From assembly GCA_030390025.1 (NCBI GenBank), contig CM059431.1, positions 104,100,001-104,164,000 on the forward strand: DNA of 64,000 bases, in the 5' to 3' direction. A program made the position numbers and the translations under genes. The DNA comes from Squalus acanthias (taxonomy: Eukaryota). Below the pieces are notes generated by a model that was given only the letters and a program-made list of their open reading frames with translations, was not told where the DNA came from and did not search any database. Shown piece by piece: positions 25,654-55,510 of this stretch (positions are counted from its first letter, which is position 1; every line of letters starts with the position of its first letter).

Positions 25654-25865
25654 GGCCATGATGCGGAGATGCCGGTGTTGGACTGGGGTGGACAAAAGTG
25701 AGAAGTCGCACAACACCAGGTTATAGTCCAACAGCTTTATTTGAAATCACGAGCTTTCGGAGCGCTGCTCCTTCGTCAGGTCACCTGACGAAGGAGCAGC
25801 GCTCCGAAAGCTCGTGATTTCAAATAAAGCTGTTGGACTATAACCTGGTGTTGAGCGACTTCTCA
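25654..25865. mobile_element. Fold-back Penelope-type short insertion (family A)
   Basis: 12-bp TSD ATCTTAAATATA (25642-25653 / 25866-25877); near-perfect palindrome centred on 25782. Confidence 0.85.
25781..25817 (+). ncRNA. Minimal type I hammerhead ribozyme motif (mirror copy on minus strand, 25747-25783)
   Basis: TCAC-CTGACGA-A-GGAGC agc GCTCC-GAAA-GC-TC-GTGA: stem I, CUGANGA core, stem II, GAAA, palindromic AGCU, CUC triplet. Confidence 0.75.
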
Positions 25866-25939
25866 ATCTTAAATATACTCAGTTCTTAACGTTTGAGCCT
25901 AATAACAAATTTGGTTCATAATAAAATGGCAAGGTTAAA

Positions 25940-27152
25940 AAAGAAAAGACTTGCATTTCTATAGCGCCTTTCACAACCTCAGGACATCCCAAAGCACTTT
26001 ACAACCAATGAACTACTTTTGAAGTGTGGTCATTCGTGTAATGTAGGAAACACGGCAATTAAGCTCCCAAAAACAGTACTGTGATAATGACCAGATAATC
26101 TATTTTAGTGATGTTGGATTGAGGGATATATATCAGCCAGGAACCAGGGATATCTCCCCTGCTCTTCTTCAAAATAGCACCAGAGTATCTTTTAACTTCC
26201 ATTCAGAGGTTAGAGAGGGCCACGGTTTAACATCTCATCTGAAAGGCGGCATCTCTGACAGTGCAGCACTCCGTCAGTACTGCCTCTCCCACAGTGCAGC
26301 ACTCCCTCAGTACTGCCCCTCCCACAGTGCAGCACTCCCTCAGTACTGCCCCTCCCACAGTGCAGCACTCCCTCAGTACTGCCCCTCCCACAGTGCAGCA
26401 CTCCCTCAGTACTGCCCCTCCCACAGTGCAGCACTCCCTCAGTACTGCCCCTCCCACAGTGCAGCACTCCCTCAGTACTGCCCCTCAAAGTGCAGCACTC
26501 CCTCAGTAATGCCCCTCTGACAGTGCAGCACTCCCTCAGTACTGCCCCTCTGACAGTGCAGCACTCCCTCAGTACTGCCCCTCCAAAAGTGCAGCACTCC
26601 CTCAGTACTGCCCCTCCCACAGTGCGGCACTCCCTCAGTACTGCCCCTCTGACAGTGCAGCGCTCCTTCAGTACTGCCCCTCCGACAGTGCAGCACTCCC
26701 TCAGTACTGCCGCTCCGACAGTGCAACGCTCCCTCAGTACTGCCCCTCCAACAGTGCGGCGCTCCCTCAGTACTGCCCCTCCGACAGTGCAGTGTCCCTC
26801 AGTATTGACCCTCCGACAGTGCGGTGCTCCCTCAGTGCTGCCCCTCCGACAGTGCAGCGCTCCCTCAGTGCTGCCCCTCCGACAGTGCAGCGCTCCCTCA
26901 GTACTGCCCCTCCGACAGTGCAGTGCTCCCTCAGTACTGCCCCTCCGACAGTGCGGTGCTCCCTCAGTGCTGCCCCTCCGACAGTGCAGCGCTCCCTCAG
27001 TGCTGCCCCTCTGACAGTGCAGCGCTCCCTCAGTATTGCACTGGGAGTGCCAGCCTAGATTTTGTGCTGAAGTTCCATGGAGTGGGACTTGAACCAACAA
27101 TCATTGCGGGATTCAAAGGTGAGAGTGCTACCAACTGAGCCAAGGCTGACAC
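25940..27152 (-). mobile_element. Deu-domain SINE containing a minisatellite expansion
   Basis: SINE tail at about 25940, head at about 27150; array at 26255-27040. Confidence 0.85.
26255..27040. repeat. 33-bp minisatellite, about 24 copies
   Basis: Unit ACAGTGCAGCACTCCCTCAGTACTGCCCCTCC(C/G), which gives 11-aa repeats in the ORF track. Confidence 0.95.
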
Positions 27153-27409
27153 CACAAGGTACAAAAAGAACGCTCCTCACCACTGCAATGTTTTGCATCT
27201 TTACTCATCAGGTTGTGTTTATTATTTGAAGCCAATGAAAAGAAAGTAGATACAAAGAGAAATGGAGCAAATATAAAGAAACAGTAAAACAGATGCAATG
27301 AAAATAGAAAACGTGGGTGGAAAGATTAAAGATGAGTAACCATGCGTTAATGACAGGATTTAATGCAGTTTTCCTGTCTTGCCCATTAAAAAGCAAATGG
27401 CAGCCTTAA

Positions 27410-28530
27410 CTGTTTTAAGGAGCATCTTAAAGGAGGAGAGAGAGATAGCAGAGAGGTTTAGGGAGGGAATGCCAGAGCATTGGGCCCAGGCAGCTGAAGG
27501 CACGGCCGCCGATGGTGGAGCGATGAAAATCGGCAATATAAACAGAAAATGCTGGAAACACTCAGCAGGTCAGGCAGCATCTGTGGAGAGAGAAACAGAG
27601 TTAACGTTTCAGGTCAATGACCTTTCGTCAGGATTTATTCCTAAGGAGCCCACAGACCCCCAACCCCCCCGCTCCCCACCTGCACCCGCCCCCCCCGTGC
27701 GTGAATTGCTGAGATGTGACGCTCTGCGCAAACTCTTAAAATTGTTTGTAGACAGGATCTCTGGGCACTTTCAGAAAATCAGGGATACATAGAGACCAGA
27801 ATTGGAGGAGGGCAGGAGGCTACAGAGAGAGGGAGGGGGGCGAGGCCTTGGAGGGATGTGAAAACAAGGGATGAACATTTGAAAATTGAGGCGCTGCATA
27901 ACCGGGAGACAATGTAGTTCAGCGAGCATAGGGGTGATGGGCGAGCGGGACTTGGTGTGAGTCAGGACACGGGCAGCAGAGGTTTGGACCAACTCAAGTT
28001 TACGGAGGGTGCAAGTATGGAGGCTCCGCTACAGTTGCCAGATTCTAAAGTATACCCGGAAATGTCTGTATCTGGCTTGCCTGAGTGTTCAGGAGACCAT
28101 CTTCCAGTATCGAGGTCTCCCACATGACCAATTATTATTGAATGATGTTACTTCAGGTATACCCATGCTGCCACAGCTATGAACACAGTCAGCTGTCCAC
28201 AGGGAGTGCAGTTATGTGTAAAGCCCATTCATCTGTAGCCTTCCCTAAATCTATGCCATCTTTCAAAGAGAATTCCAGAGCTTGGGGCCCAGGCAGCTGA
28301 AAGCACGGCCGCCAATGGTTGAGCGATGGAAATCGAGGATGCTCAAGAGGCCAGAATTAGAGGAGCGCAGATATCTTGGTGGGTTGTGGCGCTGGAGGAG
28401 ATTACAGAGATAGGGAGGGGGCGAGGCCATTTGAAAACAAGGATGAGAATTTCAAAATCGAGGCATTTCTTAACTGGGAGCCAATGTAGGTCAGCCAGCA
28501 CATGGGGTGATGGATGAACGGGACTTGGTT
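27410..28530 (-). mobile_element. L2 fragments (about 27410-27535, 27775-28025, 28268-28530) with a Penelope pLTR piece (27540-27635)
   Basis: L2 motifs SAARVLT.TKSRSPITP.LA.LH.LPV; pLTR family B sequence. Confidence 0.75.
27599..27635 (-). ncRNA. Hammerhead-like motif, family B (stem I 5' strand degenerate)
   Basis: Minus strand CTGACGA-A-AGGTC att GACCT-GAAA-CG-TT-AACT. Confidence 0.6.
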
Positions 28531-29113
28531 CGAATCGGCCGGATTATGTATTGGACGTCTTCAAATATTTTGAGTTCATTCTTGTCCGCGGCAGCTTTTC
28601 ACTGACACCTTATTTCACTGTTACGTGCTTGATGATCTTATATTCTGGATATATTCCTGGCCCCATGCAGCTAAATTCTGCCAAGGGACTTCACGCTATT
28701 CCACCAACCTTTTCCAGAAATCAAGCTGTTAGCAAGGTTTGTTAAAGCCAATCTAATTATCCTAGAGGGAACACTCTATAATTCATGTCAGAACCCAGCG
28801 TGGGCTATAATATGAACAGGTTGTATCTTTCTGTCAAGTGACCATTTGGAATACTGACATGAATAATGGTGCCATTTTTGTTTCCCACTTAAACTTCAGT
28901 TATTCTGTCTCACGCTATTTACAGACACCGCTTTTTAACAGAAAGCGCATTTGCAAATGATTATTTTCTCAGTGCATGCAAATTAATTAGGTGATAAAAG
29001 CTGCAAAACCATGTAGGTCGGAGAGTGTGCAATTTTTTAAATTTTTGTTTGAAGGTGATGTTTGGTGAAACAAGGAATTCTAACAGAATATTGACTGCTG
29101 AGGTCAACGTATT

Positions 29114-29857
29114 GGCCCTGAATTTGCGGTTGGAGGCTTCCCGCGGGGAAAGGCCTCCGATCCGCAAATAAAATGCCCGCGTACCTGGGGCCTCAGGAGC
29201 CAGGGATACTCGCGGTCCTGGGGCTCTCCGGGTACCCGCGGGCAGAGGCCCACGTACCCCAGGGGCGCGGGCGGTTCATGTGGGCCGGCCCAACTAATGA
29301 AAGAAGGGGGATCCCCATTCATGCTTATGGGGATTCCGTACGTACAGAAACTCCATAAGTATGAATGGGGATCACATAAATAATACTCCTAGACATCAAA
29401 TAAATTCAAAAAAAAAATCACATATTTAAAATTAATTAAAATGGCATTTAATTAAATATTTAAATCAAAAAATTAATTTTTTGAAAAATAAATGTACATG
29501 TTTTAAAGGGGCTAAAAATAAACTTACCTCATTGAACAATTTTTTAAATGTATAAATTATTGATAAAATATTATTTTTCTGTTTTTCAAAACTCTTACGC
29601 TGTTAAAAGCAGGCTTTACTCCTGCTTTCACCAAGTGTAAGAATTTCACGGGCCATATGCTGGGCAGCAGTTGGGCAAATAGCCCGACTCTCCGCCCGCG
29701 GAGGCCCTTTTCCCAGGGATGGCTATGATCCGTCAAGAGGATTCTTGACAGATCGCAAGTCCCGAGTTTTAGCGCATGCCCAAACCCGGAACTCGCGCGA
29801 CCCCTACGGGCGCGTATGCACCTCGTACACACTCGTAGGGGCCGCAAGTTACGGCCC
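29114..29857. mobile_element. Harbinger-type MITE
   Basis: ATT TSD on both sides; termini GGCCCTGAATTTGCGG / CCGCAAGTTACGGCCC. Confidence 0.85.
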
Positions 29858-29999
29858 ATTAAGTAATTAGGAGTGTAACAGCCATTCAGTGTGCACTATG
29901 TACACTGGCATGTGTACTCTAACTGCAAATTTGTAAATCCTAGTCGAAGCTGAGCGTATTTGTAGGCTAAAGAATAAATATTTTCTTTGTAATGTTTTT

Positions 30000-30870
30000 G
30001 CCTCTCCTCTGAGTCAGAACATTGTGGGTTCAAGTCCCACTCCAGAGACTTGAGCACAAAAATATCGGCTGACACTCCAGTGCAGTACTGAGGGAGTGCT
30101 GCACTGTCAGAGGGGCAGTACTGAGGGAGTGCGGCACTGTCGGAGGGGCAGTACTGAGAGAGCACTGCACTGTCGGAGGGGCAGTACTGAGGGAGTGCTG
30201 CACTGTCAGAGGGGCAGTACTGAGGGAGTGCTGCACTGTCAGAGGGGCGGTACTGAGGGAGCGCCGCACTGTCAGAGGGGTAGTACTGAGGGAGCGCCGC
30301 ACTGTCGGAGGGGCAGTACTGAGGGAGAGCTGCACTGTCAGAGGGGCAGTAGTGAGGGAGCGCTGCACTGTCGGAGGGGCAGTACTGAGGGAGCGCTGCA
30401 CTGTCGGAGGGTCAGTACTGAGGGAGCGCTGCACTGTCGGTGGGGCGGTACTGAGGGAGTGCTGCACTGTCGGAGGAGCAGTACTGAGGGAGCGCCGCAC
30501 TGTCAGAGGAGGAGTACTGAGGGAGTGCTGCACTGTCGAAGGTGCCATCTTTCGGATGAGACATTAAACCGAGGCCCCGTTTGCCCTCTCAGGTGGACAT
30601 AAAAGATCCCACGGCACATTTTCGAAGAAGAGCTGGGGAGTTCTCCCCGGTGTCCTGGACCAATATTTATCCCTCAATCAGCATCACTAAAACAGATTAT
30701 CTGGTCATTATGTCATTGCTGTTTGTGGGAGCTTGCTGTGTGTAAATTGGCTGCTGCGTTTCCTACATTACAACAGTGACTACACTTCAAAAGTACTTCA
30801 TTGGCTGTAAAGCGCTTTGGGACATCCAGTGGTCGTGAAAGGCGCTATATAAATGTAAGTTTTTCTTTTG
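30000..30870 (+). mobile_element. Deu-domain SINE with an internal 33-bp minisatellite (about 30083-30540, about 14 copies)
   Basis: Unit GCAGTACTGAGGGAGTGCTGCACTGTCGGAGGG sits at the same SINE position as the 26-kb array. Confidence 0.9.
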
Positions 30871-31272
30871 TTCTCCTCCTTTTGTCCCTTTCTCTATATG
30901 ATTATCTTTTCCTTTTCAAAAGCAAAAAAGACTCACTTAACACATTTATCATTTATAAAAAAAAAGAATAAATATTAATTCACAGCTGAAAATAATTGTG
31001 AAAAGCCATGGGAAACCTACATTTTTATCTTTCTCTCTGTATTAATGTTTGTGATCTGTAGACGCAAAACAATAACCCTGGCTTGAATTCACTTTCAGTT
31101 AACACTCCATTTCGCTTTATAGCAAATTGTTATAGAAGGTCAAAGAAAACTAAATCAAGATTAATTTAAAAATATACTAAGTTAATACTGTCTGAGTTAT
31201 CTTATACTGAAGGGTAATCATTGAAGAACATTCAGTCAGATGCAAGGTACTGAACATCGACCTGAACACTTT

Positions 31273-31994: not shown

Positions 31995-32036
31995 AATGCT
32001 TCAGCATTAACATTGTCTTTTGCCTCGTTAATTGGT

Positions 32037-34499: not shown

Positions 34500-34835
34500 C
34501 AATTCTCATCCTCATGTTCCAAACCCCTCCACCTCACCCCCTCCCTATCTCTGTAACCTCCTCCAGCCATACAACCCTCCGAGATCTCTGCGCTCCTCCC
34601 ATTATGGCCTCTTGTTCATCCCCCACTTCCTTTGCCCCACCATTGGCGGCTGTGCCTTCAGCTGCCGAGGCTCTAAACGTTGCAAATTCCCTCCCTAAAT
34701 CTCTCCGCCTCTCTGCCTCTCTCCCTTCCTTTAAGATGCTCCTTAAAACCTATCTCTTTGACCAAGCTTTTGGACACCTGTCCTAATGTCTCCTGATGTG
34801 ACTCGGTGTCAAATTTTGTCTGATTACACTCCTGT
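34500..34835 (+). mobile_element. L2 3' fragment
   Basis: NSLPKSLRLS..FKMLLKTYLFDQAF. Confidence 0.85.
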
Positions 34836-38215: not shown

Positions 38216-40036
38216 AAGTCAGACGGGTAGGATTATGAGTGGCACATTGGGTTCGTGTCACCTGAGCTCAACTTCGATCTAATCAGATCAAGGGGGGGCT
38301 TCACACAAAATTCCACCCCTCAGTTCTCCAGTATAGTAGAGGTAGGAGTTCATTATAACTTTGATGGATTAACAGAGGACTGAAAATGTGCCACTTGCTA
38401 AGTTTATTTTGTGTCAATCTATTTACTTTTGCTTTACTCTTAAGGTGCAAGTCTTTGCAATGTATGAGTGACTGCCATAAAGGAAGAAAAGTTTCACTGA
38501 GTTTTAACAGTCACTCCACACGAGTAAGCAGCAAAGTCATTGGTGGACATTCCTAGAAGAGAAGTGCCACTTCTATTCCAGGAATGCCCGCCTTGAAGAA
38601 GTCCTGCTCTTCTCTCTGACGGGATTTCCGTTCGTCATTGCTTTCAGTTTCCCTTCTCGTGTTTGATCAGGTATCTGCCAAGACTCGTTTTCACAGCCAC
38701 ATCTCTTTCCTCAGCAACTGTCTCCGGTTCTGACTTATTCCACATGGATTCCAACTGAGATTCCACCCTTCGTGCTTCGGATCCACCCAGGATTACAGAT
38801 ATCTCTGGGATATTCAGCGTTCCTCGAACTACTGCTCTCGCCGCATCCTGAGATCCATGCTCAACGCCATGCGTCGCCTCAAGTAATTGGTTGGTGTTGG
38901 ATGAGACATGATTTTGTTGAGAAGTACAGTTAAATAAACTTTTTAAAAATTTGTTCATGGTATGTGGGCATCGCTGGCAAGGCCTCCTCCTTGAACCACT
39001 GAAGTCCATGTGGTGAAGATACTCCCACAGTGCCGTTAGGGAGGGAGTTCCAGGATTTTGACCCAGCGATGATGAAGGAACGCCGATATATTTCCAAATC
39101 AGGATGGTGTGTGACTTGGAGGTGAACTTGGAGGTGGTGGTGTTCCCATGCGCCTGCTACCCTTGTCGTTCTAGGTGGTAGAGATCGTGGGTTTGGGAGG
39201 TACTGCTGAAGAAGCCTTAGCGAGTTGCTGCAGTGCATCTTATAGATGTTACATATTGCAGCCACGGTGCACCAGTGGTGGAGGGAGTGAATGTTTAAGG
39301 TGGTGGATGGGGTGCCAATCAAGCGGGCTGTTTAGTCCTGGATGGTGTAGGGGGTGGTGGTTTGTGTCAAGTTCGCCTCTGACTTCTGAACGGTTTGAAT
39401 CGCTCCCACTCCCTTGGTTCTAGACCTTGGACTTATTTGGGGGTTGTGATAAAAAGTGCAGCAGACAACTGGTTTTGATGCAAGAACTTTGATCTTTATT
39501 TAAGAAAGTAAAACACAACACAAAGGGATAAAAATTCACTTGGTTGCGCCTCCCGTTAGCGCCTTAAGAGGGCGCTAATGGGGCGTTAAGCCGCTAACGC
39601 CCGGGCGCAGCGCTGTTTGCGCCGCTCGAGAACTTAACTTGAGATTGTGCGGCGGCGCTAAAACTTACTGCTGCGACCACCTGCGCGCGCAGATTGTGAC
39701 GTCATTCCATGGTGCAACGCCCTTGGGGCGCCCCAGAGCGGAAATTGAGTGGCGCCCCCTGCCTTACCGCCTAGCGCTTCCAACGACCGGAAGACTGGAA
39801 CGTTATCAATCGGTGTGGGGCTGGGGGGGGCGCTATTTAAAGGGGGCCTCTTCCTGTCTTTTTCTGTGGTCGACATTTATGCACCACTCGTTCTGAGAGA
39901 GAGAGAGAGATTCGGAGAGAGAGAGAGAGAGACTTCTACATTGACTCAATGCTTTGTGAGGTAGTTTTGCCTAGTTCATCCTAACTTTGTTGCTACTTTA
40001 GTTGCTGTACCTCATTACTTTTCTGGCAAAGAGAAT

Positions 40037-41197
40037 ATGGGGGCTGCAGTGATTGGGGGCGTCGTCCTGCTCCAGCTGAATCGGAGGATACCGAGACGCA
40101 GACAGAGAGTGGCAATGATGGCCAGACGGAGGAGGGCCATCAGGCGCATGTACAGGAGAGCTTACCCTCCCAGGGTATATCGTGAACAGCTCTCCTACAT
40201 CCATATGTCCGAGGAGCTGTGTTTGCGAAGGCTGCGATTCAGCAAGGAGGTGGTCACTGAGCTCTGCCACCTGCTGCAGCCAGATCTGCAGCCTCAGCTG
40301 AGGTCCAGGACGTCTCTGTCGGTGGCAGTGAAGGTCACAGTGGCTTTGAACTTCTACGCCACTGGCTCATTCCAAGCTGCTGTTGGGGACCTCGCCAATA
40401 TCTCCCAGTTTGCGGTGCATCGCTGCATCCGGCAGGTCACCAATGCCCTCTTCAGAAGGAGACGAGACTTCATCTCTTTCCCTATGACCCCAGACAAGCA
40501 GCGTGACCGTGCTCTGGGCTTTGCGAGGGTAGCGGGCTTCCCCATGGTGCAGGGCGCCATTGACTGCACGCATGTGGCTTTGCGTGCTCCGCGAGAGAAT
40601 GCAGAGGAATTCAGGAACAGAAAGGGGTTCCATTCCTTGAATGTGCAGTTGGTCTGTGACCACAGACAGCTGATACTCGCTGTCAATGCCCACTATCCGG
40701 GCAGCTGCCACGATGCTTTCATCCTGCGCCAGACTACTGTGGCAGAAGTTTTCGAGGCACCGCATCAGCCAGTTGGTTGGCTTCTGGGGGACAAGGGGTA
40801 CGCATTGAGCACCTGGCTGATGACACCGCTCCGTACGCCAAACACCCCTGCTGAGCTGCGGTACAATGAAAGCCATCAAGCAACCAGGAACATTATTGAG
40901 CGCACAATCGGCGTGCTGAAACAACGGTTCCGCTGTCTGGACCATTCCGGAGGAGCCCTGCAGTACTCGCCTGAGCAAGTTTCGAACTTCGTAGTCGTGT
41001 GCTGCATGTTGCACAACATGGCAATCCTCAGGACCCAGCCAATGCCACCAGGCCTTGTAGCACCACCAGAGGAGGAGGAGGAAGAGGAGGAACAGGACGA
41101 GGACGATGATCATCAGCAGCACCAAGGCGGGAGGGCGGCCCACAATGGTCAAACTGCAAGGGCCGTCCGTCAACGACTAATAGCAAGCCACTTCTAG
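40037..41197 (+). CDS. Harbinger DDE transposase (HARBI1-family nuclease), 386 aa, open
   Basis: Motifs LNFYATGSFQ, GAIDCTHV, NRKGFHSLNVQLVCD, YPGSCHDAFIL, WLLGDKGY, RNIIERTIGVLKQRFRCL, CCMLHN; acidic tail. TATA-like CTATTTAAA at about 39833. Confidence 0.95.
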   Translation: MGAAVIGGVVLLQLNRRIPRRRQRVAMMARRRRAIRRMYRRAYPPRVYREQLSYIHMSEELCLRRLRFSKEVVTELCHLLQPDLQPQLRSRTSLSVAVKVTVALNFYATGSFQAAVGDLANISQFAVHRCIRQVTNALFRRRRDFISFPMTPDKQRDRALGFARVAGFPMVQGAIDCTHVALRAPRENAEEFRNRKGFHSLNVQLVCDHRQLILAVNAHYPGSCHDAFILRQTTVAEVFEAPHQPVGWLLGDKGYALSTWLMTPLRTPNTPAELRYNESHQATRNIIERTIGVLKQRFRCLDHSGGALQYSPEQVSNFVVVCCMLHNMAILRTQPMPPGLVAPPEEEEEEEEQDEDDDHQQHQGGRAAHNGQTARAVRQRLIASHF

Positions 41198-41491: not shown

Positions 41492-43368
41492 CTACTTTTT
41501 GCCCTTCGAGGGTGATCTCCTTCCCTTGCGCACTTCCCCCCTTCTAACCCTACTGCTCCTCCGTAATGGGACCTCAGTGGCTGCAGCAAGGCTGGTGGAA
41601 GGCTGCTGCTCGTCAGACCCTGACACTGCAGATGCCCCTGAAGGACGGCCTCGACCACTTCTGGGCCTGGAGGGCCCGGCTGCAGACTGCACCAACTCTG
41701 CATGGGCGGCAGCAGTCTGTCCTACAGGCGGTGGCAAGTGCAGTGGAGAAGTGACAGTGTTGGCAGCAGGAATGCTGTCATCGTGAGAGAGGCCAGCAAC
41801 TCCCTGCTCGCCCGACACACTGGCACTCCCACGGGGCAGCACTTCAGCATCCGGAGCAATTTGCCGGAGAACAGATTGCTGGCCTGCTGCGGCGCGGTGA
41901 CAGCCCCGGGGACATGTGCACGAACCATCGAGGTTGGCAGCAGTCTGTGCTCGCGTGGCCTCCATCTGAGTCTGTATGAGAGCAGTCAGAGGTGGGATCA
42001 CGGCAGCCAGTGACTGAATTGCAGCACTAAGCGTTAGTGTGGCATCCGCCTGTGCTACAGCGAAGTGCTCCACACTCCTTGCCAGTGACTCAATGCAATC
42101 GGGCACCCTTCCCACTGCACCCATGAGCTCAGTGTGCATGCCCACCGCCTGGGTGTTCATTTCTGCAATCAGCCGCTCCTCCTCTGCGTCCATTGCAGTA
42201 GGAGTGTCTGGCATACTCTCCCTCTGGGGAGAAGGCCCCCGTTCTTCCCTACCCCCCCCATGGCGTTGCTGCAGCCCGCTGGGTCCTGGAGCTTCACCAT
42301 CATCAGCCCCTTCCCCCCTGCTCCCCTCCGGGGAAGGCGTGTTCCCAGTGTGGGCATGGGCTTCCTCGGGAGAGGGTGGCACTGATGCTCTGGCTTCCTC
42401 TTCCTCCTCAGCTGCAGCATCACTCCCAGTGGCAGCTTCAGGGCCCGTCTCCTCAGCTGGTGAATCACCATCTGAAAGCAGGGAGGTACAAGAGTGGCTT
42501 TAGCGTGAGGACAGGGTGGCAGTAAGGGAGGAATAAGTGCAGCGAGTTAGCAAGTTGGATTGAAAGTGTCAAAGGCTGGTATTGTGAGGGACAAGTGGAA
42601 GGACAGAGGACAAAAAGGTGATGACCTTACCATTGCTGTCCACAACGGGGTCGGCGTCTCCAGTGGCGACGGGACCGATCACCCGGCTTGCCACAATCCT
42701 GTGGACGCGCTCCTCCAGATCGCTGAGGGGTTGCAGCTGAAGCCGCCCTCCACCTGTCCGTTGCTGCTGTCTCCGATTATGAGCCAGCTTAGCCTGCAAG
42801 AAAAAGGACAGCATCTGAGTAAATATACAGCCATGGTCTTGCCTGATGTGCCTCCCATAGGTGAATAGCCCTTACAATATACAGCCATGGTCTTGCCTGA
42901 TGTGCCTTCCATAGATGAATAGCCCTTACAATATACAGCCATGGTCTTGCCTGATGTGCCTCCCATAGGTGAATAGCCCTTACTGTATGCAAAGTGTGGA
43001 ATGTGTGTGTGTGTTTGATGAAAGGGCCATCGGTGTTGGATGAGTTTTGTGCATTGGGGTTTTAAGACCCTCTGGCCATAGAGTGAGGTTGAGATGGAGG
43101 GATGGAGAGGTATTGAGAAAAAGCCACTCACCCTGACGACCCGAGTGAGGTCGTTGAACTTTTTGCGGCATTGAGTATGGGTCCTGGGCACCATGCTCCT
43201 GGAGGAGACGCTCTGAGCCACCTCCCTCCACACTCTTCTGAACTCGCGTGGCAAAGGCCTCCTGCCACTCTCAGGGAACAGCATACATCGTCTGCGCTCC
43301 ACTGCGTCAACCAGAGCATCCAAGGCCCGCTCGGTGAAGCGATGAGTGCGTTCTCTCACCCTCTCCAT
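41492..43368 (-). CDS. Harbinger Myb/SANT-like DNA-binding protein; exons 43368-43132, 42793-42631, 42471-41492; 459 aa
   Basis: Exon 1 RFTERALDALVDAV..LF..W.EVA..RTHTQCRKKFNDL. Junctions AGG|GTGAGT, TTGCAG|GCT, G|GTAAGG and TTTCAG|AT give 237+163+980=1380 nt in frame. Exon 2 has the RTGGG motif; the C-terminus is basic. Confidence 0.85.
42822..42983. repeat. 54-bp tandem repeat x3 in intron 1 of the Myb gene
   Basis: AATATACAGCCATGGTCTTGCCTGATGTGCCTCCCATAGGTGAATAGCCCTTAC three times. Confidence 0.95.
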
Positions 43369-45525
43369 GCTTGGCAGCAAAATGGATTACAGGTCTCTCC
43401 AGGCTGAGATTCAAGGCTGCAATGAGCAGGGTGTGGCTGGGGAGCAAGTGCCCCCCCCCGCTTTAAGAAGTGGCCGGCGCCAGTGTGTCTGTGTTCCCTC
43501 ACTAACTGGCAGCAGCTGCGCTGTGCTCGTGCGCTGAGTTAGCGCCTCACTCCTTGACCTTTGCGCCTTAAGAGAGGCGTGCAACGCCTGCTTTAGCGCT
43601 CCACTCACCTCCCGGGGCGGTAAAAGTGAAGTTTCCTGTCAGTGCCGATAATTAGCGCCAGGCGCTAATATTTGCGTCCGGACGATATTTGCGCCCCAAA
43701 TGGGGCGCGACCTAATTTCTACCCCAAACACTCTTATCACTCTAAAGGTGGGGAACACTTCGGTACAAGCGAGGGAAATAACATTAAAAGAATACTTCAC
43801 CCCTCCCAATCCCATTTTACTAGCTAAGTTGGGCTGTGGAGGACCCAGGGATAATGGTCACCAAACGAATCCTTGACAGTTGAGAGTTAGGGTTTAGAGT
43901 CTTTTGAATAAAAGTTTCGTAAGGCCCTTGTTGCCGCGAGGTGTCCGATGGTCACTGAAGCGGTCGCTCTGGTCTCTTCTTGCGTGTCGGCCTACTTCTG
44001 GAGCTGTTGGCCTTCTTTATTGAACTTCTTTCTGTTGCCCCCTCGCCTTGTTGAACTGTCTTCTTTAGAGCTGTGGAACTGCCTTCTTGCAGAACTGTGG
44101 AACTGCCTTCTGCCGGACTGCTTGCTGAATTCCTTGCTGCTGTGTAACTGTTGAACTGCTTGTCTCCTTGAACTGCCGTGTAACTCTACTGGAGAACTCG
44201 AACTTGAACTGTTAAGAACGGGCCTTTAATTATACCCATTGAAGCTTCCTTATCATTGTAAGATTTTGGAGGGCTCGTCAACAGTAACGATTTTAATAAG
44301 TGTCAAATGGCTTTTGGGATGGCTTGCGTCCTGTCGATCTCCTTGGTTGATTACAGGTGATTGGTTTTGTGTTTGGTTTTCTAGGCTGGACTCGGTCTTT
44401 CTATAGAATGGGCCTGAGTGGTTTTTATTATGCATGTTTCTGATGGGCCCTGTAATCGGTTTTGATGGGGCCTGTATTTTGGGTGGGACTGTCTTCTCCC
44501 AGGGTCTATTGTTCAAATGTTAATGTCTGCTGGGGCTTGAGTGAGGTCATCCCGGTTCCCCAGACAGTGTAATTAACTGCAATAACCAAACTGCTTTTAC
44601 AGAGGTCGAACCCATCTCCTTGTCCCTTTACAGGCCCAGACATGGTTTTAAAATGCCAAAACTTGTTTTTTGGTCTTAAATTCCTTATGTTAGGCCCAAA
44701 TGCATTTTTATCACTCTGAGGTAGTTCCAAATTCCTTTTTCCTTAGGTTTTGGAGATCTGTAAATTTTGGAAACCTTACAATGGTGTCGAGCTTCTTGAG
44801 TGCTGTTGGAGCTGCACTCATCTAGGCAAGTGGAAACTATTCCATCACACTCCTTACTTGTGCCTTGTAGATGGTGGAAAGGCTTTGGGGAGTCAGGAGG
44901 TGAGACACTCACCGCAGAATACCTAGCCTCTGACCTGCTCTTGCAGCCACAGTATTTATGTGGCCAGTCCAGTTAAGTTTCTGATGGAATGATGTCTTGA
45001 AAATTACAAAGTTAGATAGCATCAATCTGCAATGTTGAAAAGCCTATTCGACATTACCCAAGAGACAACAAGAGATTATTCTGCATTGATGGGAGAACTG
45101 ACTGTGACATCTAAACCTTTACTGAGAGATCATCTCTCCATTAACATGAATTTTATTTTTGATGCCTCACGCTTTAGCTAAATCATATCTGCTGAAATGA
45201 TAGCTGTCTGCTGCTGCATAGCACAGGCTACTCTCCTACAGGTACTAAACCTGATCATCATCCAGCTGTTGAACATTTTATTGAAGGGCTGGAAATATAA
45301 AGTAAGGATATTTATGTGGCTGTCAGGAACCGTGCCCCACAGTTAGTCATTTTTGGCTACAGTAAGAACGTGGCCAGATAATATCAACAGTTAAACACAG
45401 AATAAAATCAGAATTTAGGCAGTCAGCTGGAACATTCTTATGTAGGGAGTTTTTTTAAATCGCAGTATGCAGTTCCGAGTAAACAGAATACTTACTGCTA
45501 TTTGATGGTAAGTCTTTGTTTTTTA

Positions 45526-47920: not shown

Positions 47921-47994
47921 AATGATTAAGGACAAAAGATCGTGTCACCATGCAACACCACCTTACTGCATCTATGCAACTTAATTGTGTACTT

Positions 47995-49530
47995 GGAATC
48001 ATAGAATGATACAGTACAGAAGGAGGCCATTCGGCCCATCCTGCCTGTGCCGGCTCTTTGAAGGAGCTCTCCAATTAGTCCCACTCAGCTGCTCTCTCCC
48101 CGTAGCCCTGCAGATATTTCCTTTTCAAGTATTTATCCAATTTCCTTTTGAAAGTTACTATTGTATCTGCTTCCACCGTCCTTTCAGGCAGCACATTCCA
48201 GATCACAACAACTCGCTGTGTAAAAAATATTTTCCTCATTTCCCTTCTGCATTATTTGCCAATTATTTTAAATCTGTGTCCTCTGGTTACCAACCCTCCT
48301 GCCACTGGAAACAGTTTCTCCTTATTTACTCTATCATAGGATATGCGGCACAGAAACAGGCCATTCGGCCCAACCAGTCCATGCCAACGTTTATGCTCCA
48401 CTCGAGCCTCCTCCCGTCTTTCCTCATCTAAATCTATCAGCATAACCCTCTATTCCCTTCTCCCCCATATGCTTGTCCAGCCTCCCCTTAAATGCATCTA
48501 TGCCCGTCGCTTCAACCACTCCCTGTGGTAGCGAGTTCCACATTCTCACCACTCTCTGGGTAAAGAAGTTCCTTCTGAATTCCCTATTGGATTTCTTGAT
48601 GACTATCTTATATTGATGGCCTCTAGTTATGCTCTTCCCCACAAGTGGAAACACTGGCCACTATTTCACCGACCGAAGTGGGTCCGGGGCGGCCGGGGTG
48701 GGTGTCGCGGTCCCAGCCCGCTGCCTGCTCCAGCCCGCACTCTCCAAGCGATTTTTCGTTGATTAGAATAGAAACATAGAAACAAAGAAAAATAGGAGCA
48801 GGAGTAGGCCATTCGGCCCTTCGAGCCTGCTCCACCATTCAATATGATCATGGCTGATCCTCTATCTCAATACCATATTCCCGCTCTCTCCCCATACCCC
48901 TTGATGCCTTTTGTGTCTAGAAATCTATCTATCTCCTTCTTAAATATATTCAGTGACTTGGCCTCCACAGCCTTCTGTGGTAGAGAATTCCTATCAAAAC
49001 CCTTCATAATTTTGAACACCCCTAGCAAATCCCCACTTAGCTTTCTCTGCTCTAAGGAGAACAACCCCAGCATCTCCAGTCTCTCCACATAACTGAAGAA
49101 CTCATCCCCTGGTACCATTCTGATCCAATCTCCCCTGAACCTTCTCTGCTTTAAGGAGAACAGGTGTTCTGATGCGTTGGACCCCCTGGGACACATCTCA
49201 TTGTCTTGGCTGTGCTCTTAGTGTGTCTTTGATGTAGGGAAAGATTTAATCTATGCATTTTCTCTGTGTTTTTATATTCTGTGAATTCTGATAGATTCTC
49301 TCACAGTAACTTTGCCTGACGAAGGGGCGACAGCTCCGAAAGCTTGTAATTTTAAATAAATCTGTTGGACTATAACCTGGTGTTGTGCGACTTCTCATTT
49401 TTGTCCACCCCAGTCCAACGCCGGCATCTCCGCATTAAGGAGAACAACCCCAGCATCTCCAGTCTCTCCATATACCTGAAGTCCCTCATCCCCTGGTACC
49501 ATTCTAGTAAACCTCCTCCGCACCCTCTCC
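47995..49530 (-). mobile_element. Stack of CR1 3' fragments
   Basis: Three 3' ends (about 47995, 48336, 48768) with the AGGCCATTCGGCCC stem-loop region and CR1 C-terminal peptides. Confidence 0.85.
49163..49434 (+). mobile_element. Penelope-type short insertion (family A) with hammerhead motif at 49312-49349
   Basis: 12-bp TSD TTAAGGAGAACA; TTGC-CTGACGA-A-GGGGC gaca GCTCC-GAAA-GCTT-GTAA. Confidence 0.85.
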
Positions 49531-50236
49531 TTTTACCTATTTACTTTGGAAATATCTGCAGAAGCTTTTCTTCACACAGGCCCAGCCTTCCCTCTCGGTC
49601 CTTGGCTGGTGTTTGACTGGGACCTCACTTCTAGCAGTGTTTGCCCAGGCGTTACTCTCAATATAATCTGGGCTCTGACCGCTGTCCATCTCGGTTTTCA
49701 GCCTACGGTAATTGGGAGACTGACAACTTTATGCCTTGATAACGTACTCCGGCCAAAATCTCACTCCACGCTACCGCAATAATTAACTAATGTCAGGAGT
49801 TTATGAAGCCCAACTTTATTCATTTCTGAAAGCCCCATTGCCAAAAAGAAAGGAATATATTCAGGCTACACTGTAGAAAGGTGGACTACCGGCCAGTGTT
49901 TGGCTGACTAACATGGGTCTTTCTTGGGGACCAGGGGTAGTGACAGTAATGGAGATATTTTGGACCTGAGTATGCAATGGTAAAATAAAAATATTGCTTA
50001 AGTGAGTAGGTTCATTTTGGTTTGTTTAGTCATCTGATGTGACAAAGGCTCAGGCTGTAGCCTTATAATTGAACTGTAGCTTCCAACCTATACAGCATCA
50101 TTACCAATCAATCAGTGTAGAATGGAGGCAAATCAGTCTGTTGCTGTAACAGTTAGCATCCAGAACAATACATTTACATGAAGATTTTAACAAAATGGAT
50201 AATTCCCTTACTTTTTCTGTGTACAATTGAAACAAT

Positions 50237-51120
50237 GGCCCTGATATTTATGGGGAGATGGGGAGGGAGCGGGGTGGGGCGGGGGGGGAGGCGGTGGGTG
50301 GGGGGGGCGCGCTGTTTAATGCTCAGGAAACCCATAACCCAGAAGAACAGTTTTACCTCAGCTCCTGCCGAATTTAACGGCAGGAAATGACTACCATTTT
50401 TGGACTCCGGTTCCTGGCCGCAGCCAGCCAGATTGAGAGGCTGGCTGTCGGGTGAGTAGACCTGTGGCAAAAGGCCGCAGCCGGGGAGTGGAGAGAAGGG
50501 AGGGCGAGATTGGGAGTCGGGGGCGGGGGGGGCGGCGGGGGGTGGACGGGACATTGATCGGTGGGGGGGCCCGAACAGATCGGGGAGGAGAGGAGAAGAT
50601 CACGGGGGGCCCCTGGAGGAGATCGGCGGGGTGGGGGCAGGGAGGAGCTTGTGGGCCGTGGAGGGCATCGGGAGGGCATAGGATTTGGGGGGGTGGTGGT
50701 CTGATTGCTGGGCCAGTTAACAGGCTTGCTTGGTGGGCCAGGGGGTTGGGGGGGGGGGGAGGGGAAGCACTCCTGCTCCTCTTGGCCCACAAGCAGCGCT
50801 GGAAAGGCACTTACCTCTATCCACACAGCAGTCCTCGCCTCCCTTCAGCTGCCGGGTTTCCCGAGGCCTGGGAAACCCAGCCGGCCAGTGTTAAAGCTGG
50901 AAGAGAGATAAAATCTGATGGGCGCGCAGCCTCATTAGAATATTTAAATGAGGGGCCCACCTCCTGGGAGTGGGTTGGTTGCCTGTCAACCCGTCCCGCC
51001 TCCATTAAAACCGGAAGTGGGCGGCTTCGAGGCGGTTTGGGTTTGGGTTTGAAATGTTTTACATTTTAACTTCCCACCCGAGCCAAACCCATCCGATTAT
51101 GGGGGTTAAATTTACCCCCC
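50237..51120. mobile_element. Harbinger-type MITE, G-rich
   Basis: AAT TSD on both sides; termini GGCCCTGATATTTA / TAAATTTACCCCCC. Confidence 0.75.
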
Positions 51121-51774
51121 AATGTGTCGGAGCACTGTAGTGTCCTTTTTAACAAACAAAAAAAAGCACTGTTTAGCTGTTAGGCATCATGCTAAGCTTA
51201 GTCATCTGATTGCAGGTCCTCCACTGCTTAGCAGGTGAGTCATCTAATCAGAGGAAAATGAAGCTAGACAGATCTTCATATATATTTCCTTTTGATAAAC
51301 GAAGAGGTAACCCTTCTGAGCATACCTGTCTGGAACACTACAGAAAGCTTTATTAATGCATGAAAGCAAATTGCTGTAATTTAAATTTTACACCTTGAAA
51401 GCACTCCTCCAAGGGAGGTTTTTTTAGCCCTTGTACTAACTGACATGTCTAATGAGTTCTATCACTGTGGGCTGTTATACTCAAATGAGAGCGCGTCAGA
51501 ATTTTGGTACAACAAACACGTGTACGTCCCTGACTACACTATTAGCGAGCCACTTTAGAGACTTTGATGGATTTTTAAAAGTAGTTGAATGATGCCCAGT
51601 CTTCGGCGTGTTTTAAATATATAAAAAAAATGCCAAGCTGCATTACTTGAGAGTAGCCAGATTGTTCTTTAACAAAAAGCATGTTACCGCGGATGGTGGA
51701 AATCGGGAATGAAAACCGAAAATGCTGGAAAGCGCTCAGCAGGTCAGGCGGCCTCTGTGGAGAGAGAGAGACAG

Positions 51775-51811
51775 AGTTAACGTTTCAGGTCGACGACCTT
51801 TCATCAGATTT
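51775..51811 (-). ncRNA. Hammerhead-like motif, family B, in a Penelope pLTR fragment (about 51690-51811)
   Basis: Minus strand CTGATGA-A-AGGTC gtc GACCT-GAAA-CG-TT-AACT. Confidence 0.6.
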
Positions 51812-52005
51812 ATAATTTAGCTGTTCTAAAAAACATGTTGACGCTATTAATATTTGAGATAAACTACCCGTTGTCAAACCTGCTACATTCGAAAAAATGC
51901 TGCTGAGTTTCAGTTTACCTTCTGAAAATTGGCAGGATTTGCAAAAACCTCCACACGAATTCTCAGTCCAACTCCTTCAACTTTCAGGCCATCAGCTGTG
52001 CATTT

Positions 52006-52866
52006 TAAGAACATAAGAAATAGGAGCAGGAGTCGGCCATTCGAGCCTGCTCCGCCATTCAATAAGATCATGGCTGATCTTTGACCTCAACTCTACTTTC
52101 CCGCCCGATCCCCATATCCCTTGATTCCCTTAGTATCCAAAAATCTATCGATCTCAGCCTTGAATATACTCGATACAGAACGTGACTTGACATCATGGCC
52201 GGTCTTCCCAGGTGTTTTTTTTTTTAAAAAGACTAACACAAGAACACAAATTGACAGGATATGCAGCCAGCAGGTGGTTTGACACGTTGGACCCCCTGGG
52301 ACACATTTCATTGTCTTGGCTGTGCTCTTTGTTGTAGGGAAAGATGTGAATAGATTTTGTCTGTGTTTAAATTGTGAATTCTGGGAGATTCTCTCACTGC
52401 TAACTTACCTGACGAAGGAGCGAACTGCTCCGAAAGCTTGTAAAATTAAATAAATCTGTTGGACTATAACCTGGTGTTGTGCGACTTCTCATTTTTGTCC
52501 ACCCCAGTCCAACGCCGGCATCTCCACATCTTGAATATACTCAACAACTGAGCATCCACAGTCCCTCTGGGGTAGAGAATTCCAAAGATTCACCACCCTC
52601 TGAGTAAAGAAATTTTTCTTCATCTCAGTCCTAAATGGCCGACCCCTTATCCTGAGACTGTGACCCCTGGTTCTAGACTCCCCAGCTAGGGGGAAACAGC
52701 CTCTCAGCATCTACCCTGTCAAGCCCTTTAAGAATTTTATACATTTCAATGAGATCACCTCTCATTCTTCTAAACTCCAGAGAATATAGGCCGAGTCTAC
52801 TCAATCTCTCCTCATAGGACAATCCCCCCATCCCAGGAATCAGTCTGGTGAACCTTTGTTGCACTC
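52006..52866 (-). mobile_element. CR1 3' fragment, interrupted at 52172-52529
   Basis: YEERLSRLGLYSLEFRRMRGDLIE..FFTQRVVNLWNSLP; TAAGAACATAAGAA tail. Confidence 0.9.
52172..52529 (+). mobile_element. Penelope-type short insertion (family A, longest copy) with hammerhead motif at 52405-52443
   Basis: 13-bp TSD CTTGAATATACTC; TTAC-CTGACGA-A-GGAGC gaact GCTCC-GAAA-GCTT-GTAA. Confidence 0.85.
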
Positions 52867-53059
52867 CATTTTGATTTCCTATTTCATTCCCAGGTTATTT
52901 TCTTCCCATTTTCCCTTGGTCTCCACACCAGTTTCTGCCATTTTCTGCAGACTTCCATTTTGAGACAACTTGTGCCAAAATTGAATCTTTAGCTTTAACT
53001 TGGTAACAGTTCCTTTAATTCAGCCGCAATACTCAAGAGGTTTAAAAACCAGCTCCGTT

Positions 53060-53905
53060 CAACAACAACAACAACAACAACTAACATTTATATAGCGCCT
53101 TTAACGTAGTACAACGCCCCAAGGCGCTTCACAGGAGCGTTATCAAACACAATTTGACACCGAGTCACAGAAGGAGATAGTAGGACATGTGACCAAATGC
53201 TTGGTCAAAGGGGTAGGTTTTTAAGCAGCGTCTCAGGGTACAGAGGAGATTTACAAGGCTGTTGCCAGGACTGGAGAATTGTATCTATGAGGAAAGACTG
53301 GATAGGCTGGAGTTGTTTTCTTCGGAACGGAGGAGGCTGAGGGGAGACTTGATTGAGGTGTATATAATTATGAGGGGCCTGGATAGAGTGGATAGGAAGG
53401 ACCTATTTCCCTTAGCAGCGAGGTCAATAGCCAGGGGGCATAGATTTAAAGTAATTGGTCGGAGGATTAGAGGGGAGTTGAGGGGAACTTTTTTCACCCA
53501 GAGGGTGGTGGGGGTCTGGAACTCACTGCCTGAAAGGGTGGTAGAGGCAGAAACCCTCATCACATTAAAAAAGTACTTGGATATGCTCTTGAAGTGCCGT
53601 AACCTACAGGGCTACGGACCAAGAGCTGGAAAGTGGGATTAGGCTGGAGAGCTCTTTTTCATCCGGCACAGACGATGATGGGCCGAATGGTCTCCTTCTG
53701 TGCCGTAAATTTCTATGATCCTAAAGGAGGAGAGAGAGGTGGAGAGACAGAGAGGCTCAGGGAAGGAATTCCTGAGCTTAGGACCCAGACAGCAGAAGGC
53801 ACGGCTGCCAGTGGTGGAGCGATGAAAATCAGGGATGCGCAACAGGCCAGAATTGGAGGAGCGCAGCGATCTCGGAGGCATGCAAGGCTGGAGGAGGTCA
53901 CAGAA
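53060..53905. mobile_element. L2 3' end (-) interrupted by a CR1 3' end (+, about 53234-53721)
   Basis: L2 gcagcgtct...aaaggaggagagagagg is continuous across the CR1 ORF at 53262-53642. Confidence 0.85.
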
Positions 53906-54319
53906 GCATTGCCTCAGTCTTAAGCCTATAGGAATGTTGTAAAGACAATTCAGTATCTCAGAAGCTGTTCTCTTGATGGTAGAATCCAGCCTGTACATTT
54001 CAAACACAAGTAACTGTGAAACTCGTTCAGTTCCATGAGTGACTGGCAGGTCCTGAAGATCTGACAGTTATTCACAATTATGAAACTGCAGCAACTATTT
54101 CCAGTTAATTATTTGGCTTGCACTGCCCAAATTAGAAGGAATTGGCTGGAAGTTATGAAGAGAATAAGTCAGGCCAATTAATCCCCGCCGTTGGTAAGAA
54201 CAGAAGAGACATATTACTGTGTATATACTTATAAAATATATCTTAGTACGAGAGATTGTGGACCATTTTTGTTATTTTCTTTATTTTGAGGAGTTAATAC
54301 AGTCCAACATTTACTGTAA

Positions 54320-55510
54320 GTCATAGAGTCATAACGGCACAGAAGGAGGCCATTCAGCCCATCGAGTCCGTGCCGGCTCTCTGTAGAGCAATCCAGTCAG
54401 TCCCATTCCCCCACTCTATCCCCGTAGCCCTGCAAGTTTATTTCCCTCAAGTGCCTATCCAGTCTCCCCTTGAAAACATTGAGTGTTTCCGCTTCCACCA
54501 CTTCCGTCGGCAGCGAGTTCTAAGTCCTCACCACTCGCTGCGTAAAAAAGTTTTTTCTCACAGCCCCCCCGTATCTCTTGCCCAAAACCTTAAATCTGTG
54601 TCCCCTAGTCCTTGTACCATCAACTAGTGGGAACAGCCTTTCCCCGTCTAGCCTATCCAAACCCGTCATAATCTTGTACACCTCGATCCTTTGCTCTAAT
54701 GAAAACAAATCCAGCTTCTTCAACCTGTCCTTGTAGCTTAGATCCCCCACCCCCGGAACCATTCTGGTAAATCTCCTCTGCACCCTCTCAAGGGCCTTCA
54801 CATCCTTCCTAAAGTGTGGTGACCAGAACTGGACGCAATACTCCAGTTGTGGCCTAACCAGCGCTTTATAAAAGTTCAGCATAAATTTCTCTACTTTTGT
54901 ACTCAATACCTCTATTTATGAATCATGATACGGAGATGCCGGCGTTGGACTGGGGTGGACAAAAATGAGAAGTCGCACAACACCAGGTTATAGTCCAACA
55001 GTTTTATTTAAATTTTCGAGCTTTCGGAGCTGCTGCTCCTTCGTCAGGTAGAGGTACAGTGAGGGAATCTAATACACAGTATATATACACAGAGAGCGAC
55101 TTGACTGCAGAGATACAATCCATCAGGAAGGCACTACATCAAAGAAACATCAGAGCACAGCCAAGACAATGAGGTGGGTCACAGGGGGTCCAACGTGTCA
55201 AACGTTAGACCCCCTGTGACCCACCTCATTGTCTTGGCTGTGCTCTGATGTTTCTTTGATGTAGTGCCTTCCTGATGGATTGTATCTCTGCAGTCAAGTC
55301 GCTCTCTGTGTATATATACTGTGTATTAGATTCCCTCACTGTACCTCTACCTGACGAAGGAGCAGCAGCTCCGAAAGCTCGTAATTTTAAATAAAACTGT
55401 TGGACTATAACCTGGTGTTGTGCGACTTCTCATTTCTATTTATGAAACCCAAGATCCCATATGCTTTGCTAACCACACTCTCAATATCTCCCGCCACCTT
55501 CAGGGACCTG
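54320..55510 (-). mobile_element. CR1 fragment split by a palindromic insert
   Basis: YKALVRPQLEYCVQFWSP..; CR1 resumes at 55435. Confidence 0.9.
54923..55434. mobile_element. Fold-back Penelope-type insertion (family A); hammerhead motifs at 55014-55051 (-) and 55347-55384 (+)
   Basis: 12-bp TSD TCTATTTATGAA; near-perfect arms of about 233 bp around the loop GTCAA (55197-55201). Confidence 0.9.

Follow-up and report, generated by a model that had tools for sequence, protein, structure and literature searches.

Four short insertions in a 64-kb window (the whole stretch of DNA analyzed here) each carry a motif resembling a hammerhead ribozyme, which raises the question of whether they represent a small mobile element in its own right or the ends of a larger one. 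A preliminary description of the locus had offered both answers: a retrozyme-like, non-autonomous family, or 5′-truncated pseudo-LTRs (pLTRs) of a Penelope-like element (PLE).

Four insertions flanked by exact target site duplications

The anatomy of the insertions and their target site duplications (TSDs) were observed directly, and all four sets of coordinates originally proposed, with exact TSDs of 12–13 bp, were confirmed on the sequence (Table 1). When intervals of the same sizes were drawn at random, a direct repeat of at least 12 nt was present at both ends in 851 of 200,000 draws. The TSDs are AT-rich (67–92%, vs. 54% in the whole window). Insertion 3 lies within a host repeat that has four uninterrupted paralogs in the 64-kb window, and it is therefore a true insertion.

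Inverted duplication was found in insertions 1 and 4, each of which has two hammerhead motifs, one per strand. Their arms are nearly identical (82 of 83 aligned bases in insertion 1; 231 of 234 in insertion 4, with a 2-nt overlap at the junction). Identity between the arms of one insertion is thus 98.7–98.8%, higher than the 87–95% found between insertions, where alignments contain up to 39 gap columns. This difference indicates young insertions from different sources.

Table 1 Features of the four insertions, in window positions
Feature	Position	Strand	Description
Insertion 1	25654..25865	.	212 bp; element 3′ end as head-to-head inverted duplication
Insertion 1 minus arm	25654..25781	-	Hammerhead motif (C3 at 25779) to full 3′ end
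Insertion 1 tail	25654..25698	-	45 nt; minus arm only; self-inverted match spans 25699–25865 only
Insertion 1 plus arm	25781..25865	+	Hammerhead motif 25785–25813; tail-less end
Insertion 1 TSD	25642–25653 (left), 25866–25877 (right)	+	12 bp; exact
Insertion 2	49163..49434	+	272 bp; single 5′-truncated copy with tail; hammerhead motif 49316–49345
Insertion 2 TSD	49151–49162 (left), 49435–49446 (right)	+	12 bp; exact
Insertion 3	52172..52529	+	358 bp; longest copy, with tail; hammerhead motif 52409–52439
Insertion 3, 5′ 100 nt	52172..52271	+	Only in copy 3 within the window; repeated in public assemblies
Insertion 3 TSD	52159–52171 (left), 52530–52542 (right)	+	13 bp; exact; within host repeat
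Insertion 4	54923..55434	.	512 bp; head-to-head inverted duplication
Insertion 4 minus arm	54923..55203	-	C3 at 55047; 40-nt tail 54923–54962
Insertion 4 plus arm	55202..55434	+	Without tail; hammerhead motif 55351–55380
Insertion 4 TSD	54911–54922 (left), 55435–55446 (right)	+	12 bp; exact

Inverted copies with a one-sided tail

The two arms of each inverted copy do not end alike. By direct observation, the terminal 40–45 nt are present on one arm only in both inverted copies (two of the four insertions): the plus-strand arms of copies 1 and 4 end at ...GACTTCTCA(TT), at points no more than 2 nt from the same base, while their minus-strand arms reach the full ..GGCATCTCC end. The 3′ end said to be shared by the four copies is accordingly present as sequence, but its strand differs, since copies 1 and 4 carry it on the minus arm. 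The same tail-less end also occurs in public contigs, as a joint from 52494 to 52531 in three of four sequencing runs.

This layout has a published counterpart. PLE insertions have been described as an “inverted 5′-truncated copy” with a 30- to 40-bp extension, or tail (Craig et al. 2021, PMC8557442), and Pen2a_Av shows a matching inverted-copy arrangement (Arkhipova et al. 2013, PMC3846280), although that study attributed head-to-head palindromes to self-priming on an antisense template. Tails here measure 40 and 45 nt, the latter slightly above the published range. The link to Penelope drawn in the preliminary description is thereby supported by an inverted copy plus tail in two of the four insertions.

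Two further features of this region were noted by eye, a candidate 3′ splice site of an intron within the tail and an AATAAA just downstream of the hammerhead. A 3′-terminal hairpin (GTTGGACT with AGTCCAAC) was present in three of four folds, but we rejected it as a selected structure, its stability being no better than that of shuffles (z −0.37 to −1.14).

The same anatomy bears on whether the copies could be monomers left by a true non-LTR retrozyme, in which tandem arrays elsewhere would be transcribed, dimeric hammerheads would cut the transcripts, and unit-length or circular RNAs would be reinserted. The size and composition of the copies (272–358 nt, 43–47% GC, for copies as found) fall inside the range for such elements of 150–450 nt and <50% GC (PMC7229834), and families with a mean of 363 bp and monomer derivatives have been reported in one chondrichthyan (Li, Clavereau and Pollet 2026, bioRxiv 10.64898/2026.07.22.740005). 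However, none of the four insertions in the window is organized in tandem, and even the closest motifs on one strand are separated by about 3 kb and belong to insertions with TSDs of their own. The hammerhead cut site forms neither end of any insertion, no insertion is circularly permuted, and among the 15 of 132 joints listed for public contigs, none runs from 3′ to 5′ end. Tail asymmetry, moreover, suggests PLE-type priming. We therefore consider a retrozyme origin highly improbable.

A minimal hammerhead motif

Six occurrences of CTGACGA-N(8-30)-GAAAGC were observed in the window, all within the four insertions, compared with a mean of 0.07 in shuffled sequence (0 of 100 shuffles reached six). 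This bears out the earlier statement that each insertion carries the motif, and the cut predicted after C25813 is correctly placed on it. A further motif at 6982 was without stems and was set aside as a chance occurrence. Core nucleotides are also kept across copies as described, with 11 of 11 core bases identical in all six arms, and the same constancy applies to the bulge between positions 9 and 10.1, the G10.1-C11.1 pair, and the palindrome (AGCU, self-complementary in the four arms tested). Helix III is absent, and the length of loop II ranges from 3 to 5 nt. In a survey of metazoan PLEs (PMC4209133), the minimal hammerhead is marked by a 9/10.1 bulge, G10.1-C11.1, a palindromic 15.2–16.2, and family-level variation, and all four marks were found in the present motif. 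On these predicted features, present in six of six arms, identification as a minimal type I hammerhead is supported at the level of sequence. It is this minimal PLE type, rather than the canonical type of characterized retrozymes (PMC7229834), which further argues against descent from a retrozyme.

Helix I is less regular. It has at least 4 bp in three of the six arms and 3 bp in one; in the other two it is broken or cut off. Stem I has a mismatch in the minus arm of insertion 4, and the junction leaves 2 bp of it in the minus arm of insertion 1. The stem I covariation reported earlier holds for one compensated pair (1 of 10 predicted pairs across four copies), alongside one G-U change, but the outer pair of copy 4 is broken.

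It is improbable, in our view, that the motif is a neutral or protein-binding hairpin in the repeat end rather than a ribozyme, a reading that bears only on activity and does not conflict with a PLE origin. The Rfam hammerhead search put forward as a check on the motif returned no hammerhead match at E ≤ 5, consistent with such a hairpin. (Three Rfam matches were to unrelated families, all below their own gathering scores; the MIR396 match among them, of 34 bits against a gathering score of 80, reflected only the fold-back of insertion 1.) Copies 2 and 3 also have a CUU triplet, a weak one for hammerheads. In public contigs, none of the 29 substitutions listed falls in the 11 core positions, which is not significant alone (P = 0.39), and four of nine indel rows, which are not independent events, fall in loop II. 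Moreover, eight of nine Xenopus dimers showed no cleavage in vitro, and PAc, a Poseidon element of Anolis carolinensis, inserts without cleavage (PMC11167929). Set against these points are the core, bulge, G10.1-C11.1, and palindrome held constant in every arm while loop II changes length, as well as weak cleavage by the same architecture in other PLEs, as a dimer or with protein (PMC11167929, PMC4209133).

Coding potential and 5′ ends

No ORF is present within the 212–512-bp insertions, and 5′-truncated copies would not be expected to hold one; copies 2, 3, and 4 have stops in all three frames. Protein searches with element-derived frames matched no PLE protein. The first open frame of copy 3, considered as a possible GIY-YIG C-terminus, had no match among longer proteins, and the frame open over the 3′ terminus, considered as a possible ORF start, had no match either. 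A marginal match (P0001, E = 9e-4) was discarded as tandem-repeat sequence without a BLASTP alignment to the query. The word-index protein searches are weak negatives because they produced only one and four candidates. Viral, metagenome, and prokaryote contigs were also scanned for exact 22-nt patterns, with 0 matches in each set.

The six arms have six different 5′ ends, at 2, about 4–7, about 149, 153, 156, and 237 nt upstream of C3, so that two stop at the hammerhead. Three of these fall in an interval of about 12 nt, some 150 nt from C3 and just upstream of CGTTGGAC, a motif complementary to the tail, and this clustering suggests something tighter than random truncation would give. Copy 3 continues past the cluster, and its additional 5′ 100 nt are repeated in public assemblies; the family therefore does not start at the ~140-nt segment shared between copies. 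Instead, family sequence extends at least 90 nt upstream of that segment and is repeated in three of three contig runs. Within this upstream part, positions 52191–52200 match the last 10 nt of the minus arm of insertion 1, and the length of a T-run at 52215–52247 differs among other copies in public contigs, indicating that this stretch is non-coding.

Summed contig depth climbs toward the 3′ end in all three contig runs (0.69, 1.20, 1.77, and 4.97 million in X1) and is flat over two upstream segments in X3 (0.51 and 0.50 million), bearing in mind that contig depth is not copy number and also drops wherever the sequence of another subfamily departs from that of copy 3. From run X21, which comes from another organism, only 16 raw reads mapped, to the flank and the 3′ 100 nt, a number too small to use.

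These observations are relevant to a further explanation, in which a non-coding, SINE-like PLE derivative of roughly 360 nt or somewhat longer would be dispersed as monomers that keep the pLTR end, be mobilized in trans by PLE protein, and share the same priming and tail mechanism. We regard this as unlikely but not far-fetched. It is consistent with no ORF in up to 358 nt, the non-coding 52215–52247, the 5′ ends gathered near CGTTGGAC, and the recurrence of a 10-nt 3′ terminus in the 5′ part of copy 3; such derivatives have been reported in Chlamys (PMC8557442), and pLTRs alone are enough for mobilization in trans (PMC3846280). Yet copy 3 passes the 5′ cluster by 100 nt of sequence repeated in all three contig runs, at least three diverged source lineages share a common design, and coding PLEs normally have a 3′ UTR and pLTR that together span a few hundred bases (pLTRs of 193–218 bp, PMC3846280). 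In a more specific version, which is distinctly unlikely, the lineages of copies 2, 3, and 4 would form a high-copy dispersed non-coding “Penelope SINE,” a few-hundred-nt RNA with hammerhead and tail, in which the 3′-terminal motif ACATCATGGCC is duplicated near the 5′ end, the RNA closes on itself by CGTTGGAC-tail pairing, and PLE protein inserts it in trans, often priming both cut strands.

Proposed origin and mechanism

The four insertions are probably 5′-truncated retro-copies of the 3′ end (3′ UTR plus pLTR) of EN+ PLEs from about three source lineages. The alternative raised in the preliminary description, truncated pLTRs of a PLE, was thus the best fit among the readings. The retrozyme-like small non-autonomous family that it placed beside this was not upheld, with 0 of 4 insertions in tandem, a different 5′ end in each arm, family sequence at least 90 nt further upstream, and an ordinary PLE layout in two of four. 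Most likely, these are hammerhead-bearing ends of PLEs, an ordinary kind of element already known in many animals.

We infer the autonomy of the source, the priming scheme, and any cleavage, modeling the mechanism by analogy on PAc, in which there are two RT start sites and two strands are cleaved and extended at AT-rich DNA (PMC11167929). An RT/GIY-YIG protein would make a staggered cut in AT-rich DNA, giving the 12–13-bp TSD. Reverse transcription would then begin inside the element's own RNA, at one or the other of two sites separated by about 40 nt, and in most cases end after 80–360 nt. Priming of a single strand would produce a single copy with a tail (copies 2 and 3). If both cut ends were primed, one per start site, the cDNAs could join at a 1–2-nt overlap to give a head-to-head insertion with one tail (copies 1 and 4). 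The hammerhead would be a passenger in the insertions; selection would presumably maintain the motif in the source elements, whose tandem units could complete stem III by pairing the palindromic AGCU. Solo and fold-back copies are predicted to be inactive in cis because they have no adjacent same-strand partner.

On the most likely reading, the genome sampled here joins the other animal genomes in which young PLE ends are abundant, and with four insertions in 64 kb the locus is a handy place to compare genomic copies with the model of PLE insertion by two start sites and two-strand priming. Were the non-autonomous reading true, the copies would be a clear vertebrate case of a dispersed, monomeric, PLE-dependent non-coding retroposon, modestly extending the 2026 preprint that ties animal retrozymes to PLE termini.

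Comparison with known systems

Like EN+ PLEs of the Penelope/Poseidon and Neptune groups (PMC3846280, PMC8557442), the present insertions combine heavy 5′ truncation, a head-to-head inverted copy, a one-sided tail of 40–45 nt, a TSD, and a hammerhead motif in the terminal repeat. They differ from EN+ PLEs in being copies without an ORF and in TSD length, 12–13 bp here vs. 8–10 bp in published rotifer examples. Resemblance to PAc (Frangieh et al. 2024, PMC11167929) extends to a pair of 3′ end points separated by roughly the length of a tail, AT-rich targets, end homology of no more than 1 nt, and a hammerhead about 80–125 nt upstream of the ends. Unlike PAc, whose ORF begins in hammerhead stem II, the corresponding stretch here has stops and 1–2-nt indels, and any ORF would therefore have to begin downstream of it; an ATG at the very 3′ terminus of copies 1 and 4 is one candidate.

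Small non-coding relatives are less close. Animal non-LTR retrozymes (PMC7229834; bioRxiv 10.64898/2026.07.22.740005) are likewise non-coding, about 300 nt long, low in GC, PLE-related, and equipped with a type I hammerhead, but their defining traits are units in head-to-tail tandem and circular RNA, whereas the present copies are all solo or inverted. By contrast, the minimal hammerheads of metazoan PLEs (Cervera and De la Peña 2014, PMC4209133) share with ours the type I core, the bulge and its adjoining pair, the absence of helix III, and the palindrome; helix I, of about 4–5 bp there, reaches 4 bp or more in three of our six arms. That survey also describes opposite-strand pairs 100–700 bp apart, comparable to those in copies 1 and 4, with most motifs occurring singly and being “probably related to truncated PLEs.” No shark family is among those named in the passages cited, and helix II is 5–6 bp here vs. 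7–8 bp in the Schistosoma family.

Structure and age of the insertions

The four insertions lie where the preliminary description placed them (see table), each flanked by an exact direct repeat (12, 12, 13, and 12 bp), the target-site duplication (TSD). When intervals of matching size were drawn at random 200,000 times, 851 had a boundary direct repeat of such length. Target DNA at the TSDs is 67–92% AT. Copy 3 splits a host repeat that has four uninterrupted paralogs within the window. Copies 1 and 4 have no uninterrupted paralog spanning the insertion site within the window, and the sole site-spanning paralog of copy 2 lies in its own duplicated flank; because copies 1, 2, and 4 thus lack an independent uninterrupted paralog, their evidence of insertion is the TSD. 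The host flanks of copy 2 (49044–49146 and 49427–49529) are a ~100-bp direct duplication, 84% identical, which predates the insertion. Copies 1 and 3 sit in target sites (25628–25881 and 52147–52545) that share CTT[AG]AATATACTCA and, upstream, CTATCGAT, possibly a hot spot for insertion. A close variant of this motif has four further, unoccupied occurrences in the host repeat, and an element end is joined at the copy 3 site in other contigs as well.

The preliminary description had overlooked that copies 1 and 4 each consist of two arms, or element copies, meeting at a head-to-head junction with minimal central overlap (at most 1–3 nt in copy 1, 2 nt in copy 4). In both, the minus-strand arm carries the full 3′ end, and the plus-strand arm ends ...GACTTCTCA(TT), without the last 45 nt (copy 1) or 40 nt (copy 4), hereafter the tail. 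Copies 2 and 3 are tail-bearing single arms. Arm-to-arm identity is 82/83 in copy 1 and 231/234 in copy 4, yet identity between insertions is only 87–95%, and their alignments contain as many as 39 gap columns. The insertions must be young, given that their TSDs are exact and their paired arms almost identical, and the differences between them therefore reflect different source lineages rather than decay. On this sequence comparison, the four are a set of related subfamilies rather than one recently expanded small element.

Features of the window
Feature	Position	Strand	Details
Copy 1	25654–25865	plus and minus arms	
Copy 2	49163–49434		single arm
Copy 3	52172–52529		single arm
Copy 4	54923–55434	plus and minus arms	
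Second hammerhead-motif repeat family	27524–27631, 51689–51807, 21318–21421	-	GGTC/GACC stem II, palindrome ACGT
Second hammerhead-motif repeat family	59513–59545	+	GGTC/GACC stem II, palindrome ACGT
Harbinger-like DNA transposon, DDE_Tnp_4 open frame	39965–41197	+	410 aa; E 3.5e-39
Harbinger-like DNA transposon, Myb/SANT frame	41492–43386	-	faces DDE_Tnp_4 frame; E 1.8e-08
Open frame with CCHC zinc knuckle, retroelement ORF1/gag-like	19048–19989	+	313 aa; E 5.7e-05
Minisatellite arrays	26253–27039, 30082–30545, 58352–59121		~33-nt and ~23-nt units; long spurious frames

The hammerhead motif

CTGACGA-N(8–30)-GAAAGC occurs six times in the window, all within the insertions (0.07 expected). All 11 core bases are unchanged in all six arms, in which the A that bulges out between positions 9 and 10.1, the G10.1–C11.1 pair, and the palindromic AGCU are also invariant. 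Helix II has 5 bp (6 bp in copy 3) and a loop of 3–5 nt; helix I has at least 4 bp in three arms and 3 bp in one, and is damaged or cut off in the two minus arms. The covariation noted earlier for stem I is real but thin: across the four plus-strand motifs, one of ten predicted pairs changed on both sides, against two G–U changes and one pair broken in copy 4. The 29 substitutions listed for other copies in public contigs all lie outside the core, a result short of statistical significance (P = 0.39), and an Rfam search at E ≤ 5 returned no matching hammerhead model for the insertions.

Because each inverted copy has one motif per strand, read-through RNA would contain one motif and its full antisense. 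Judging from this layout, the predicted hammerheads would have an adjacent dimer partner in none of the four insertions. Three same-strand motifs (49316, 52409, and 55351, plus strand) are spaced 3.09 and 2.94 kb apart, an evenness that looks like chance because the TSDs are separate. The second hammerhead family comprises two motif-bearing copies, a third copy truncated within the motif, and one short fragment; no convincing TSD was found at its copies.

Where the element begins

Relative to core position C3, the arms begin 2, ~4–7, ~149, 153, 156, and 237 nt upstream, three of them within ~12 nt of one another. This clustering and the failure to find a link to an open reading frame (ORF) were counted against simple 5′ truncation. 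Copies 2, 3, and 4 contain stops in all three frames, and searches with element-derived frames found no Penelope-like element (PLE) protein, although these are weak negatives.

Of 24 listed public runs, four were aligned to 52110–52590, three as contigs (24,842, 20,057, and 2,740) and one as 16 raw reads. Over the 100 nt that no other copy in the window has, copy 3 was covered by contigs about as deeply, to within an order of magnitude, as over the shared segment: summed depths, which do not equal copy number, were 0.69 vs. 1.20 million in run X1, 0.51 vs. 0.50 million in X3, and 4.9 vs. 12.3 thousand in X7. Whole contigs aligned to copy 3 from 52182–52189 onward. The family therefore starts elsewhere than at the shared ~140-nt segment. 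Sequence 5′ of 52172 was absent from the loose ends (18 of 718), joints (15 of 132), and pieces (24 of 48,271) listed. We infer that the source element is autonomous; a dispersed non-coding PLE derivative, the boldest alternative, is less likely.

Depth peaked in the last 70 nt, at 3–22 times the hammerhead bins. At 52450–52517, 3′ of the predicted cut, depth was ~22 times that of the hammerhead in X7, a presumed RNA run, vs. 3–6 times in two DNA runs. RNAs with their start at this point, or the presence of other subfamilies, could account for this excess, and contigs cannot distinguish between the two. Positions 52191–52200, in the 5′ part of copy 3, exactly match the last 10 nt of the copy 1 tail; the match contains an ATG with a favourable Kozak context.

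A possible route of insertion

The layout of the insertions matches that of published PLE insertions, for which PMC8557442 and PMC3846280 describe 5′ truncation, an adjoining inverted truncated copy, and a one-sided tail of 30–40 bp. Purified protein of PAc, the Poseidon PLE of Anolis carolinensis, is described in PMC11167929 as cleaving and extending both strands of AT-rich DNA and reverse transcribing from two internal sites, whose spacing equals the tail. By analogy, a 12–13-nt staggered cut in 67–92% AT target DNA could be followed by priming at the distal site, yielding copies 2 and 3, or by priming at both ends, each from a different site, with two short cDNAs joined to give copies 1 and 4. 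In contigs from three of the four runs, an end without the tail is joined to the host-repeat site that copy 3 occupies. This joint supports the second end point and suggests that the target has been used repeatedly. Alternatively, the inversion may arise through self-priming on an antisense template, as proposed in PMC3846280.

Comparison with known elements

A search of published papers found no description of this particular family, but it or a related family could be among the supplementary alignments of PMC4209133 or the retrozyme-family tables of a 2026 preprint (bioRxiv 10.64898/2026.07.22.740005). That preprint already traces animal non-LTR retrozymes to the termini of PLEs, and one chondrichthyan is among the animals in which it describes them. 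At PLE termini, minimal hammerheads have been described mostly as single motifs and sometimes as opposite-strand pairs (PMC4209133, 2014), and dimer cleavage is treated by Lunse et al., as cited in PMC6765202. The earlier reading of Penelope-derived ends agrees with the PLE features that could be tested. Retrozyme-like membership fared worse: tandem units and circular RNA define animal non-LTR retrozymes (PMC7229834), and tandem units are absent within the window. The insertions are real, well preserved, and of an ordinary, already known kind, behaving like PLE ends and, without tandem units in the window, unlike animal non-LTR retrozymes.
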